From: Reyranella sp.
GTDB lineage: Bacteria; Pseudomonadota; Alphaproteobacteria; Reyranellales; Reyranellaceae
DNA: 64,000 bases
Direction: 5' to 3'
NCBI GenBank assembly: GCA_052386855.1
Contig: JBQTJT010000108.1
Coordinates: forward strand, 2,340-66,339
Under the pieces are notes generated by a model that saw nothing but the letters and a program-made list of their open reading frames with translations, did not search any database and had not been told where the DNA came from. Below, in pieces: positions 21,339-50,230 of this stretch; the first letter of the stretch is position 1, and each line of letters opens with the position of its first letter. The translations under genes were made by a program, and so were the position numbers.

Positions 21339-22310
21339 CTAAAGCGCGCGTGTCACCGTCTGCGAGCCACCGCCCCAGATCGGCAGGTAGCTCATCTTGT
21401 ATCCCGCACCGCCGGTTACGATGGGGTGGATGGCAGCCGGTGCGCTTGCCACGTCCTGGCCTTCGTCGAACAGATACTGCTGCACGCGCGCCAGATCCCA
21501 ACCGTCGTGGCGGACGATCTTCTCGGCCATTTCGAGCGGCAGCAGGAACACCTGTTCGCCGCGCTGGTTCTTGCGGCCCATGCCGGACATGACGATGGCG
21601 GCCCGCATCGCTGTCGCAATGGGGGAGAGGATGGCCTCGGGCGTGGCGCCTTCGCCGTCGCCCGGCAGCACCTCGGCGGTGCCCGAAATGCCCATCACCG
21701 TGATGGCGCTGGCGTCGCCGCCGAGGCCGCGCCGCGCAGTCAGGGTCGGGAAGGGACCATCGTTCCGTTCGGCAAAGCAGAAAGTGTACTTGCCGGGTTG
21801 CCCCATGGTCGCCATGTCGCCCACGTCGGAGCGCGCGCCGCCGATGTTGCGGATCACGAGCTGCAGCGCGCGGCCGATGCTGGCGTTGGCGCGATTGCCG
21901 GGACCGAGGCAGTTGGTGCCGGCATTGATGCCGAGCGATCGCGCCAGCGGGCCGTGCACGCAGAGCGCCACGCAGGCCGTGCCTGTCGTCGTGGCGATGC
22001 CGAGGATGTTGAAGTCGGGCTCCAGGATCGCCTCGGATGCGGCCAGCACGACCGGCAGCTCGTCGGGCAGCGCGCCCGCGATCACGCACTGGTAGGCCAC
22101 GGCCTCGGGCGTGAGCTCGCCGAACATCGGCGGCAGCATGCCGCGCGACTCGGCGCGATTGACGACGCCGGCGACCATGGCATCGAGCCGCCGTTGCGTC
22201 GGCGGTACAAGCGGCAGGCCGTCGCTGAGCTCTGCGTCAGTTAGGATCTGCTGGGCAACTTCCCAGCCCGCCGACTCCTCGACGACGGGCCAGCCGCACC
22301 ACTCGGTCAT
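21339..22310 (-). CDS. conserved protein of unknown function, paralog B of the selenoprotein operon
   Basis: 323 aa. Shares DGLPLVPPT, EPDFNILG, NAGTNCLGPG, ANASIGRAL and PGKYTFCF blocks with the upstream gene. Its start ATG 22310 overlaps the upstream stop (ATGA). Confidence 0.7.
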   Translation of the reverse strand: MTEWCGWPVVEESAGWEVAQQILTDAELSDGLPLVPPTQRRLDAMVAGVVNRAESRGMLPPMFGELTPEAVAYQCVIAGALPDELPVVLAASEAILEPDFNILGIATTTGTACVALCVHGPLARSLGINAGTNCLGPGNRANASIGRALQLVIRNIGGARSDVGDMATMGQPGKYTFCFAERNDGPFPTLTARRGLGGDASAITVMGISGTAEVLPGDGEGATPEAILSPIATAMRAAIVMSGMGRKNQRGEQVFLLPLEMAEKIVRHDGWDLARVQQYLFDEGQDVASAPAAIHPIVTGGAGYKMSYLPIWGGGSQTVTRAL

Positions 22311-23341
22311 TGGATGCGCGTGCAGGCGACCATGGTGCCGCCGAACGACGGGATGAACGCCGAGTGCTTGCCCGGGCCGCCCGCCACGGTGATGTGTATG
22401 TCGTTCGAGGAACGGCCAATGCGCAGCCAGTCACCGTCGCGCTTGTGGCCGGTGGCCTCGTAGGTCTCCATGTTCTCCTTGGAGACGCGGCTGATATGGA
22501 CACGCGAGCGGGTCCACAGCTCCTCGCGGATGGTCTCGATGGTGAAGCCGTCGCGCTTCAAGGTCGCGGCGTGCTCCGGGCCGATGATGATGAACATCGG
22601 GCCTTTGCCGTAGATCGTGTTGGCGCCAGGATTGGCCATGCCGCCGGCGAAGGTCGTCAGCAGGCCATCACCCGTGGTCGAGCCGTGGTCGTTGAGGTTG
22701 TGCGGACCTTCACCGGACATCACCGTCACCACATTGTCGGTCGGCTTGAAGCCGCGCTGCACATGGTAGGGCGCCCAAGGGTTCTCTTCCTCGTTTTCGC
22801 CAAAACAGAAAGTGAACTTGGCGGGATTGCCCTGGGTCGAGCGATCCATCTCGCCGGGCTTGGCGCCGGCGATGTTGAGCAGCATCAGGCCGAGCGCGCG
22901 GCCGATCGTGGCGTTGGCCTGCCAGCCCTGGCCGAAGCAGTTGGAGCCGCAGTTGACGTTGAGCTCCTTGCGGATCGGTCCGCTGATCATGACCATCGGC
23001 GCGCAGGAATGCGTCGTGGCGAGCGTGCCGTGCAGGTTGAAGTCGGGTTCCAGCACGCTGCGCAGCGCGGCCGTTACCACCGGGAAGTATTCCGGCTTGC
23101 AGCCGGCCATGACGGCGTTGGCGGCCATCGCCTGGATGGTTGGCACGATCTGGCGCGGCGGCACGGGCGAGTAGGGCCGATTGTCGCCGCGCACCGTGTC
23201 GACGAACTTCGCCACCTTCGCCTCGGTCGGCACGAAGAGCGGCATGCCGTCGCTCCAGCCCTGTTGGGTGGCGAACTCGTTGAACGTCTCGACGTCCATG
23301 TCGCCGATGTCGATGACTTCCTGTTCGGCGATATCCGTCAT
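22307..23341 (-). CDS. conserved protein of unknown function, paralog A of the selenoprotein operon
   Basis: 344 aa. Blocks are DGMPLFVPT, EPDFNLHG, NCGSNCFGQG, ANATIGRAL and PAKFTFCF. Its start ATG 23341 overlaps the selenoprotein stop (ATGA). Confidence 0.7.
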   Translation of the reverse strand: MTDIAEQEVIDIGDMDVETFNEFATQQGWSDGMPLFVPTEAKVAKFVDTVRGDNRPYSPVPPRQIVPTIQAMAANAVMAGCKPEYFPVVTAALRSVLEPDFNLHGTLATTHSCAPMVMISGPIRKELNVNCGSNCFGQGWQANATIGRALGLMLLNIAGAKPGEMDRSTQGNPAKFTFCFGENEEENPWAPYHVQRGFKPTDNVVTVMSGEGPHNLNDHGSTTGDGLLTTFAGGMANPGANTIYGKGPMFIIIGPEHAATLKRDGFTIETIREELWTRSRVHISRVSKENMETYEATGHKRDGDWLRIGRSSNDIHITVAGGPGKHSAFIPSFGGTMVACTRIQ

Positions 23342-23856
23342 TGCTTCGTCGCCTCGAGAAGGCCCTTGGTCGCGGTTTCGATGCGCTCGCGCAGCTCCTC
23401 GGCGTTGAGACCGCCCACCGGGTGCTTCACGACGATAAGCTTGGGCTCGATCTTGCGGGCTTTCGCCTGGGCAAGCACGAGCGGCTTGAAGGTCTCAGTG
23501 GCGATCACGTAGGCCGTGATGCCGAGTTTCTCGAGTTCGATGCTGTCGTGGAAACTCCACGATGAGCAGGACCCTCAATCCCCTAGTGCAAGGAGCGCCG
23601 CGCGATACTTGGTGGCGACAGCCTGGATCAGTTCCTTGGGGGCGGCCTGGCTGGCGCTGTTCTTGGCGTGGAACTCGATGTTGTCGACGTTGCGGAAGGC
23701 GCTGAGCTTGGCCTTCATGCCCTCGAGCAGCTCGCGCGCATTCGGCTTGGAGTTCGACATGAGCGCGATCGCGTCGGTTGCCCAGTTGATCGGCTTCAGC
23801 GCGATCGTGGGGCCCGCGGCGGCCGCGAGACCAAAAGTCGGATTGATGATACGCAT
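23338..23856 (-). CDS. UGSC-motif selenoprotein, 172 aa, with in-frame UGA (23577..23575) read as selenocysteine
   Basis: The track ORF stops at TGA after ...KYRAALLALGD. The same frame continues GSCSSWSFHDSIELEKLGITAYVIATETFKPLVLAQAKARKIEPKLIVVKHPVGGLNAEELRERIETATKGLLEATKQ to TGA 23340..23338, which overlaps the next gene's ATG. The 237-nt tail has no start codon of its own. A hairpin follows the UGA. RBS GAGGAG lies before ATG 23856. Confidence 0.75.
23541..23568 (-). promoter_or_regulatory. candidate bacterial SECIS hairpin
   Basis: The mRNA reads UGA GGGUCC UGCU-CA-UCGUGGA-GUU-UCCACGA-C-AGCA. It has a perfect 7-bp upper stem with a G-U-containing apical loop starting 12 nt after the UGA, plus a 4-bp lower stem. 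Confidence 0.5.
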
Positions 23857-23868
23857 GATCGCTCCTCT

Positions 23869-24744
23869 TCAACTCGCTTTGGCCAGCGCCGCCACGACGG
23901 CCTTGGCGGCACGCTGGCCGTCGGCGATGGCGTCCGAGAGATAGGGACGTCCACCGGCCCGTACGTCGCCCGCGGCAAGGACCGAGGGCGCCGAGGTGCG
24001 GCCATCTTCATCGACCACGATATGCCCTGAGGCGTCGCGTGCAAGCGTTTCCGGCAGGAATTCCGCAGCGGGAGACTGGCCGACATAGACGAACACTGCG
24101 CTGGCCGGAACCGTGTTCCGCGCTGCTCCGGATTCAACCACGATGGACTGCAGGCCGTCGTTGCCCTCCAGGCCGACGATGCGGCCGTCGAGGAAGGTGA
24201 CGCCCTCGGGCTTCTCGTCCGGCGGCGATCCGATCACGGTGACCGATCCGGCAAGCGCGATCAGCTCCTGGGCTTCGAGGGCGGCCCAGCCTTCCGCGCC
24301 GGCGACCACGACCGGCAAGCCCGTGTAGAGAGGACCGTCGCAGGCAGCGCAGTGAGAGATGCCGCGGCCTTCGTATTCGTCTTCGTTGGCGAGACCAAGC
24401 CGGCCCTTGTTGAGGCCGGTCGCGACCACGACGGCGCGGGCGGTGTGGCGCTCGCCGTCGGCTGTCTCGATCGTCCACGGACCATTGCCGGAGAGCTTGG
24501 TCACTTCGCCGAAGCCGATTTCCACGCCAGCGACCACGGCGTCGTCGGTCAGGAGCGAGGCCATCTGTGTGCCAGTGAAGATCTCGTCGAAGTCGTGCAG
24601 TTCGCCAAGGTTGATCAGCACGCCGCCTGGGGCGAGCTTGTCGAGGCACAGGCACTTCAGGCCGGTGCGGGCGGCTTCGGTGGCGGCGGTGAGGCCGGCG
24701 GGGCCGGCACCGATGACGATGACGTCGTGGGAGGGCGTGTCCAT
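23869..24744 (-). CDS. thioredoxin-reductase-like FAD-dependent disulfide oxidoreductase lacking canonical NADPH-binding motifs
   Basis: Start is ATG 24744 (MDTPSHDVIVIGAGPAGLTAA). The redox motif is CAACDG (TrxB has CATCDG). GDV(R) lies near the C-terminus. The second dinucleotide motif reads VVVAGAEGWA where TrxB has VIGGGNTA, and HRRxxxR is absent. Confidence 0.85.
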   Translation of the reverse strand: MDTPSHDVIVIGAGPAGLTAATEAARTGLKCLCLDKLAPGGVLINLGELHDFDEIFTGTQMASLLTDDAVVAGVEIGFGEVTKLSGNGPWTIETADGERHTARAVVVATGLNKGRLGLANEDEYEGRGISHCAACDGPLYTGLPVVVAGAEGWAALEAQELIALAGSVTVIGSPPDEKPEGVTFLDGRIVGLEGNDGLQSIVVESGAARNTVPASAVFVYVGQSPAAEFLPETLARDASGHIVVDEDGRTSAPSVLAAGDVRAGGRPYLSDAIADGQRAAKAVVAALAKAS

Positions 24745-24800: not shown

Positions 24801-24829
24801 TTCCATACCTAGTTATGCTAGGTATGGAA
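24801..24829. promoter_or_regulatory. perfect 12-bp inverted repeat, candidate PadR operator
   Basis: TTCCATACCTAG-ttatg-CTAGGTATGGAA lies in the divergent intergenic region between the TrxR-like gene and padR. It abuts the padR RBS and start. Confidence 0.5.
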
Positions 24830-24835
24830 GCCGAA

Positions 24836-25162
24836 ATGCTCAAAGGGCACCTCGATGCCATCGTCCTCGCCGCGCTGGAAGTCGGGCCGGCACACGGCTA
24901 CGCCATTATAGAAACCATTAAACGCTGCAGCACTGACACTTTCGACCTGCCGGAGGGCACCATCTATCCGGCGCTTCATCGCCTGGAAGAGGCTGGCCTG
25001 CTCTCGAGCGCGTGGACGGTCCCGCCTGGCGGCCGTCGCCGCCGCATGTATTCGCTGACCAAGGCGGGCTCGGCAGCCCTTGCGGATCGCCGCAAGGCGT
25101 GGGGCCGGTTCTCGCAAGCCATCAATGCGCTGCTTGGGGGAGGCCGCGCATGGCCGGCATGA
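24836..25162 (+). CDS. PadR family transcriptional regulator
   Basis: Contains MLKGHLDAIVLAALEVGPAHGYAIIETI and EGTIYPALHRLEEAGLLSS. I prefer ATG 24836, which lies 5 nt after GGAAG. In-frame alternatives are 24815 and 24824. Confidence 0.85.
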   Translation: MLKGHLDAIVLAALEVGPAHGYAIIETIKRCSTDTFDLPEGTIYPALHRLEEAGLLSSAWTVPPGGRRRRMYSLTKAGSAALADRRKAWGRFSQAINALLGGGRAWPA

Positions 25163-50153: not shown

Positions 50154-50230
50154 TGGTCGGGACGACAGGATTTGAACCTGCGACCCCCTGTCCCCCAGAC
50201 AGGTGCGCTACCAGGCTGCGCTACGCCCCG
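50154..50230 (-). tRNA. tRNA-Pro, anticodon GGG
   Basis: The minus strand reads CGGGGCGTAGCGCAGCCTGGTAGCGCACCTGTCTGGGGGACAGGGGGTCGCAGGTTCAAATCCTGTCGTCCCGACCA. The acceptor stem is 7 bp with one G-U pair, the anticodon loop is CUGGGGG, the T-loop is GGTTCAAATCC, and CCA is encoded. Confidence 0.9.

Follow-up and report, generated by a model that had tools for sequence, protein, structure and literature searches.

A UGSC-family gene annotated as a fragment in Reyranella: a very probable selenoprotein and its closely linked partner family

A protein containing a U-G-S-C motif, in which U stands for selenocysteine (Sec), was reported in 2007 from Hyphomonas neptunium and from metagenomes and was described as "a selenoprotein of unknown function" (PMC1976440). 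In 2008, the survey of aquatic metagenomes (Global Ocean Sampling, GOS) counted 255 Sec forms versus 21 cysteine (Cys) forms of UGSC and proposed a "likely Trx-like fold", that is, a thioredoxin-like one (PMC2398784), and in 2016 the family was counted in sequenced bacteria (Table S3 of PMC5029168). No experimental study of the UGSC family was found in the literature, and a review published in 2026 still regards it as uncharacterised (PMC13188914), in agreement with a preliminary description of the present locus, which had named a family without any assigned function. The gene discussed herein belongs to this family and is located in a stretch of 64,000 nucleotides from Reyranella sp. (contig JBQTJT010000108.1, positions 2,340 to 66,339), referred to below as the window, where the UGSC gene and its operon occupy the minus strand. 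The gene (23338..23856, minus strand) comprises 172 codons and a stop, with an in-frame TGA as codon 94, and it very likely encodes a Sec-containing UGSC-family protein of 172 residues that was truncated by annotation. It shares with the family, represented by ABI76733.1 of H. neptunium, the motif column, the length of about 170 residues and the existence of both Sec and Cys forms, and it differs in nothing essential, except that the Reyranella clade lies just under the cutoff of the family model NF041046. The finding is thus the re-discovery, in a gene annotated as a fragment, of a family that has been known since 2007-2008, rather than the discovery of a new kind of element.

Two better understood systems offer themselves for comparison. 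In the glycine and D-proline reductases (the Grd and Prd systems), Sec is carried in a UxxC-type motif on a small subunit or domain, and trxB/trxA genes reside in the operon. In Escherichia coli fdhF, the G and the U in the apical loop of the Sec insertion sequence (SECIS) are the bases recognised by SelB.

The reading frame of the Reyranella gene begins at the ATG 23856-23854, which is preceded at a distance of 5 nt by the Shine-Dalgarno sequence AGGAG (23862..23866, minus strand), as read from the sequence. It proceeds over 93 codons (...AALLALGD) to the TGA at 23577-23575, the proposed Sec codon and the U of U-G-S-C, and past this TGA it stays open as GSCSSWSFHDSIELEK... over 78 sense codons until it closes at the TGA 23340-23338, which overlaps the ATG of the next gene (23341) in the form of ATGA. 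The preliminary description, which had given a 93-residue open reading frame (ORF) ending in ...AALLALGD-TGA, 78 further sense codons devoid of a start or ribosome-binding site of their own, and a final TGA overlapping the next ATG, proved correct in all coordinates and on each of these points. The earliest candidate start in the tail is the GTG at 23508, situated 22 codons beyond the TGA, so that the invariant stretch GSCSSWSFHDSIELEK has no start of its own. Only four in-frame TGAs with coding signal on both sides were detected in the whole window, and that of the UGSC gene is the only one resembling neither a gene junction nor a short spurious ORF.

The simplest alternative is that the TGA is a genuine stop, which would leave a 93-residue protein followed by a tail that either goes untranslated or forms a small ORF of its own from GTG 23508. 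ORF callers indeed return one ORF of 93 and another of 56 residues, dozens of database entries measure 94-98 residues, and no sel machinery is seen in the window. Moreover, the chance of an open frame of 78 codons was estimated at about 15% for the G+C content of the window, 66%; such a frame is therefore unremarkable, and the case depends on the comparison with other sequences.

For the family searches, the 172-residue read-through product was used as the query with U replaced by C. The Pfam family PF24696 "UGSC family" was matched with 124.5 bits, against a gathering score of 25, over residues 3-168 of 172, so that the U-G-S-C product put forward in the preliminary description was covered essentially end to end and in both halves, on either side of the TGA. 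The NCBIfam model NF041046 was matched with 117.4 bits (E = 5.2e-34) over residues 29-168, and its title, "UGSC family (seleno)protein", is the very name given in the preliminary description. An exhaustive profile search placed the size of the UGSC family at 1,819 representative clusters.

A search of 5.8 billion proteins yielded 54 relatives, most of which comprise 94-98 residues and align with no more than the N-terminal 54% of the query, as is typical where an ORF caller has halted at a Sec codon. These short entries are truncations at the same TGA. Full-length Cys forms were also retrieved, namely P0046-P0050, P0053 and P0054, all of which carry D-C-G-S-C-S-S-W at this position, so that the Cys or Sec expected at this column in full-length homologs was found as Cys, and the homologs do not consistently end at about 93 residues. 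In the alignment of nine full-length sequences, D93, G95, S96, C97, S98, S99, W100, D104, L108, E109, K110 and G112 are invariant; hence the invariant core of the family, D-[U/C]-G-S-C-S-S-W...LEK-G, is situated at and just past the TGA. The tail is in fact the best-conserved part of the family, contrary to the lack of conservation that had been considered as a sign against read-through. These observations speak against the genuine-stop explanation, since the invariant core falls within the 22 codons that separate the TGA from any start available to the tail, and since the Cys-form homologs and natural fusions run unbroken through the TGA column.

Two further full-length relatives, P0001 and P0002, have G or W at the Sec column. 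Such translations lend some appeal to another explanation, according to which the UGA is read through as something other than Sec, either by near-cognate insertion of tryptophan or Cys or by genome-wide reassignment of TGA. At the DNA level, however, P0002 (L097:352-1005) has TGA at both of its W positions, the Sec codon and the true stop, so that its W is an artefact of translation with code 4. The code-4 product of P0002 overruns the real end of the gene by 45 residues. In the window, TGA is the ordinary stop of the UGSC gene, of the gene following it and of the gene preceding it, including both ATGA junctions of the operon; as TGA closes the operon genes normally, it is not reassigned in this genome. 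In addition, the TGA column aligns with Cys in the U/CxxC motif, which represents the classic Sec/Cys exchange.

The conservation of the TGA was followed through a scan with one genome per species, in which 308 genomes contained a relative and the best 80 were taken. These best 80 of 308 belong mostly to Reyranella, Reyranellaceae and Hyphomicrobiaceae, with protein identities to the window of up to 97%. Together with five metagenomic loci, the 80 reference species gave 85 loci, every one of which has TGA at the Sec column and 76-84 open codons behind it. Among 82 distinct sequences, tail codons keep the amino acid fixed while their synonymous sites vary freely (T+28, L+32, V+33 and L+34, with 1.4-1.8 bits), a pattern that indicates purifying selection on the protein. 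A TGA with an open tail in 85 of 85 loci, a Pfam match spanning both halves and the lack of a start codon or ribosome-binding site right after the TGA leave the genuine-stop explanation with an almost negligible probability.

Immediately downstream of the TGA, a SECIS-like hairpin (23541..23568, minus strand) can be folded, starting 7 nt past the UGA. Its lower stem pairs UGCU with AGCA (23568-23565/23544-23541) and is followed by a small internal loop, an upper stem of UCGUGGA and UCCACGA (23562-23556/23552-23546) and the apical loop GUU (23555-23553). Over this element, synonymous change is held back. Codons -1 (GAT), +5 (TCG), +7 (AGT), +8 (TTC) and +10 (GAC) display zero synonymous variation in the 82 distinct sequences, while Ser and Asp codons are variable elsewhere in the UGSC gene; the Asp codon before the TGA is GAT in 82 of 82, although GAC is the usual codon. 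The mean synonymous entropy amounts to 0.28 bits in the hairpin versus 1.00 elsewhere (Mann-Whitney p = 1.2e-4), and of 79 sliding windows, the three with the least synonymous variation all lie on codons +3 to +14. Codon +7, which provides the G and U of the apical loop, is AGT in all 82 sequences, whereas five neighbouring genes use AGT for only 2 of their 76 Ser codons. Among 32 distinct sequences, pairing is retained in 93.4% of cells versus 30-54% in controls with slid register, and the variation in the stems is entirely one-sided and wobble-compatible (U-A/U-G, C-G/U-G, G-C/G-U).

The geometry resembles that of the fdhF SECIS, inasmuch as the hairpin lies directly 3' of the UGA within the coding sequence and the loop G and U, if counting begins with the U of UGA, are nucleotides 23 and 24, just as they are in fdhF of E. 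coli. In the two Cys-form genes examined, exactly these nucleotides (G23-U24) differ. The two elements differ in the loop itself (GUU here, GGUC in fdhF), in the lack here of a clear counterpart of the bulged U17, and in the small internal loop of the present hairpin (C, A opposite C), which closes to a G-C pair in some species.

Several results weigh against Sec decoding. The hairpin has a folding energy of -15.1 kcal/mol with z = -1.17, equalled or bettered by 29 of 200 shuffles; no Rfam match was obtained on the gene even at E <= 10; and compensatory double changes are absent among the 32 distinct sequences, so that covariation does not prove the structure of the hairpin, the 80 loci being too much alike to reveal such changes. 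No tRNA-Sec was detected in the 64-kb window or in 50 loci scanned, and tblastn with SelA, SelB and SelD of E. coli against the window and the fetched loci gave no match in the window or in the Reyranella loci. The sole match of that search was the C-terminus of SelB in two loci of a more distant relative, on contigs of 2.6 Mb and 7.5 Mb (L002:1-333, L004:1-364), where this end of selB is found some 10 kb ahead of the UGSC operon and counts as indirect support for Sec use. The Sec machinery is accordingly supported only at the level of the genus, through the literature: Table S2 of Peng et al. 2016, which covers Sec-utilising organisms, lists Reyranella massiliensis 521 with 10 selenoprotein genes (PMC5029168). 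The ortholog in that strain is 83% identical to the window protein and has the same TGA. Reyranella is not mentioned in the supplements of the tRNA-Sec survey paper. The score against NF041046, finally, narrowly misses the curated cutoff of 125, which may explain why the annotation as a 93-residue fragment persists in the Reyranella clade; this miss notwithstanding, the PF24696 match and the motif both support membership in the UGSC family. The only tRNA seen in the window is a tRNA-Pro (GGG) at 50154-50230 on the minus strand.

No literature report of selenium incorporation was found for any UGSC member, a point in favour of read-through by another amino acid. On the other hand, the constrained hairpin with its fdhF-like G23-U24 and the use of Sec in the genus Reyranella, in addition to the Cys alignment and the normal use of TGA as a stop, make such read-through highly unlikely. 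Codon 94 is very probably a site of Sec insertion. It is envisaged that the UGA would be decoded by SelB and Sec-tRNA(Sec), steered by the hairpin presenting G23-U24, and that the gene's second UGA, lacking a hairpin of this kind, would serve as the stop.

The operon runs on the minus strand in the order of a thioredoxin-reductase-like (TrxR-like) gene, a 12-nt spacer with the Shine-Dalgarno sequence, the UGSC gene, and two genes termed partner A and partner B. The first gene (23869..24744) encodes a flavoprotein disulfide reductase of 291 residues, or of 330 residues from an alternative start at 24861, and matches Pyr_redox_2 with 86 bits. It is like TrxB, the protein modelled by TIGR01292, in being a two-domain flavoprotein with the GxGxxG motif for flavin adenine dinucleotide (FAD) and a CAAC aligned with the redox-active CATC of E. 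coli TrxB, to which it is 29% identical. It is unlike TrxB in its TIGR01292 score, 176 bits and thereby far under the cutoff of 343, and in the NADPH-site motifs GGGNxA and HRRxxxR, which are degenerate (GGGNTA to GAEGWA, HRRDGFR to GSPPDEK). The electron donor may therefore not be NADPH.

Partner A (22307..23341, minus strand; 344 residues) starts at the ATG that overlaps the stop of the UGSC gene, and partner B (21339..22310, minus strand; 323 residues) overlaps the stop of partner A in the same ATGA manner. The two are paralogous, with 29% identity (E = 5e-42), and neither has any match in Pfam, searched up to E <= 10, or in NCBIfam. Partner A has more than 7,300 homologs, of which every named one is a "hypothetical protein", and retains 62-66% identity across Alpha- and Gammaproteobacteria. 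A search of its profile against the sequences of Protein Data Bank (PDB) chains gave nothing significant (best E = 0.3), and its AlphaFold2 (AF2) model, which is confident (pLDDT 83.7, pTM 0.85), likewise found nothing significant in the PDB with Foldseek (best E = 5.8e-3, query TM <= 0.24). A resemblance to class-I fumarase or to Toblerone-fold hydrolases was considered and dropped, the Foldseek matches being too weak to use. The partners look like an undescribed enzyme family or fold.

The association of UGSC with the partner family is close to constant. Of 86 loci, 82 have the partner downstream of UGSC in the same orientation, and clustering places the TrxR-like gene directly upstream, again on the same strand, in 69; by tblastn, the latter holds for about 68 of 92. 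Over the 92 loci, the arrangement of TrxR-like gene, UGSC, A and B occurs in 55 complete loci, a further 11 show AB or AAB but lack the TrxR-like gene, and the order of A before B is kept in most loci. One relative (L002) possesses three partner genes (A, A, B) in its operon but has lost or never had the TrxR-like gene, and a gene of the proline-racemase family lies nearby; partner B of the window is 56% identical to its third partner gene. The UGSC-partner pair even persists in very distant Cys-form loci, one in a betaproteobacterial metagenome-assembled genome (MAG) and the other on a contig with archaeal markers (PolD, class-I LysRS), whose partners match partner A of the window with E = 4.5e-77 and 7e-78. 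In the betaproteobacterial MAG, the pair is situated between two family-III coenzyme A (CoA)-transferases and a MaoC-like dehydratase, a context that hints at an acyl-CoA or organic-acid substrate. The same apparent operon (L088:5480-12775) also holds a 556-residue protein with a second partner domain.

Fusion of the two families is observed as well. Among the top 150 family clusters, 15 have a length of 485-570 residues, and 14 of these 15 join a Cys-form UGSC domain at the N-terminus to a partner domain at the C-terminus, with E values of 2e-43 to 3e-97 in the comparison with partner A. These natural fusions are very probably the "UGSC/Unknown_1 fusion" of the 2008 paper (PMC2398784). In the fusion P0242, which has 556 residues, the motif reads H-C-G-A-S-S-S-W, the second Cys of CxxC being gone.

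The predicted structure of UGSC was obtained as an AF2 model of P0001, 73% identical to the window protein, with a pLDDT of 88.5 and a pTM of 0.84. It consists of five beta-alpha units, in which the modelled Sec94 is placed between beta3 (86-90) and the helix 96-110 and Cys97 in the first helical turn. Foldseek against the PDB returned generic flavodoxin-like, lumazine-synthase, CheY-like and GTPase-type folds with a query TM of at most 0.57, and no thioredoxin-fold protein was among the matches listed. The UGSC profile gave nothing significant against PDB chains in the sequence search (best E = 0.27). The model thus predicts a flavodoxin-like rather than a thioredoxin-like fold, and the Trx-like fold proposed in 2008 is not supported by it.

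These data also bear on whether UGSC might be a free-standing, thioredoxin-like general redox carrier or antioxidant instead of a dedicated enzyme subunit. The UxxC motif, the TrxR-like gene upstream and the fold suggested in the metagenomic survey (PMC2398784) would all suit such a carrier. Against this stand the five beta-alpha units of the predicted fold with their generic flavodoxin-like matches, the near-obligate linkage or fusion to the partner across bacteria and the archaeal-looking locus, and the loss of the TrxR-like gene in distant lineages, which together render a free-standing carrier unlikely.

It is proposed instead, with moderate confidence, that UGSC is the selenol or thiol redox subunit of an uncharacterised reductase in which partner A/B binds the substrate. 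The geometry of Sec94 and Cys97 in the model would suit a reversible selenenylsulfide. In the envisaged cycle, the U94-C97 pair would reduce or attack the substrate bound by partner A/B in a two-electron step and thereby become a selenenylsulfide, whose Se-S bond would be re-reduced by the upstream TrxR-like flavoprotein, or by a general thiol system in lineages without the TrxR-like gene. The neighbouring genes, comprising CoA-transferases, a MaoC-like dehydratase, Amidohydro_2, a proline-racemase-family gene and a Liv-type transporter, give a hint that the substrate may come from a catabolic pathway for amino acids, acyl-CoA compounds or small organic acids.

Three findings run counter to this proposal. 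The distant loci examined lack the TrxR-like gene, the product of which also has degenerate NADPH-site motifs; no significant relative of known function was detected for UGSC or for the partner by sequence or by structure; and some fusions, P0183 among them, do not have the conserved partner cysteines C135 and C179. The last of these leaves U/CxxC as the only universal redox centre, which speaks against a simple disulfide relay into the partner. With P0242 lacking the second Cys and P0183 lacking the partner cysteines, the same dithiol chemistry is not possible in all members.

An analogy of logic, and of nothing more, exists with the glycine and D-proline reductases (GrdA, GrdB, PrdB), the shared elements being a small Sec subunit or domain of UxxC type combined with larger non-seleno subunits, and an operon containing a gene of the thioredoxin-reductase type (trxB/trxA there, the TrxR-like gene here). 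The motif of PrdB is entered as "UxxC" in Table 2 of the 2008 survey (PMC2398784). In contrast with this likeness of logic, UGSC and its partners have no detectable sequence or structural similarity to these enzymes and are not members of their family: the Pfam families GRDB and Gly_reductase gave no match to UGSC or the partners at E <= 10. A distant relationship of UGSC to GrdB/PrdB was likewise dismissed at the sequence level, as the window protein and the Cys forms P0047 and P0053 had no match to PF07355 at E <= 10.

More tentatively, and with less than even confidence, UGSC and partner A/B may constitute a previously undescribed and widespread enzyme class, occurring as separate proteins or as fusions in bacteria and in a lineage of archaeal appearance. 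Such a class would be distinguished by a partner fold without a relative in the PDB, by U/C-x-x-C on a flavodoxin-like domain as the sole universal redox centre and, in the Reyranella lineage, by a dedicated TrxR-like recycling protein that perhaps works without NADPH. If this were true, one of the most abundant selenoprotein families of aquatic environments would provide a new reductase, directed at a small organic compound, with its catalytic selenol.

New with respect to the literature consulted are the counts showing that UGSC and the partner family are paired almost everywhere, the recognition of A and B as paralogs, a dedicated TrxR-like gene whose NADPH site is degenerate, a predicted fold that is not of the thioredoxin type, and a hairpin with fdhF-like geometry. 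For annotation, the consequence is that the UGSC gene and the dozens of entries of 94-98 residues appear to be truncated selenoproteins, and rule-based pipelines may keep missing the Reyranella clade because of its score under the NF041046 cutoff. The operon, the partner linkage and the fusions form a concrete, testable unit and offer a workable way of finding out what an abundant orphan selenoprotein family does; cultured hosts for such work exist in R. massiliensis 521, R. soli NBRC 108950, Enhydrobacter aerosaccus ATCC 27094 and Desertibaculum subflavum.

In the surroundings of the operon, an Amidohydro_2 gene converges on it from the downstream side, and a divergently transcribed gene on the other side (24815..25162, plus strand) encodes a PadR-family regulator (PF03551, 76.8 bits), an arrangement that is repeated in L001. 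By association, this regulator may possibly control the operon. The three other in-frame TGAs of the window that have coding-like third-position G+C on both sides are located at + 11392, + 1829 and - 42633. The one at + 11392 lies between 390 and 358 open codons, with an ATG 4 codons downstream, and probably separates two neighbouring genes in the same frame.

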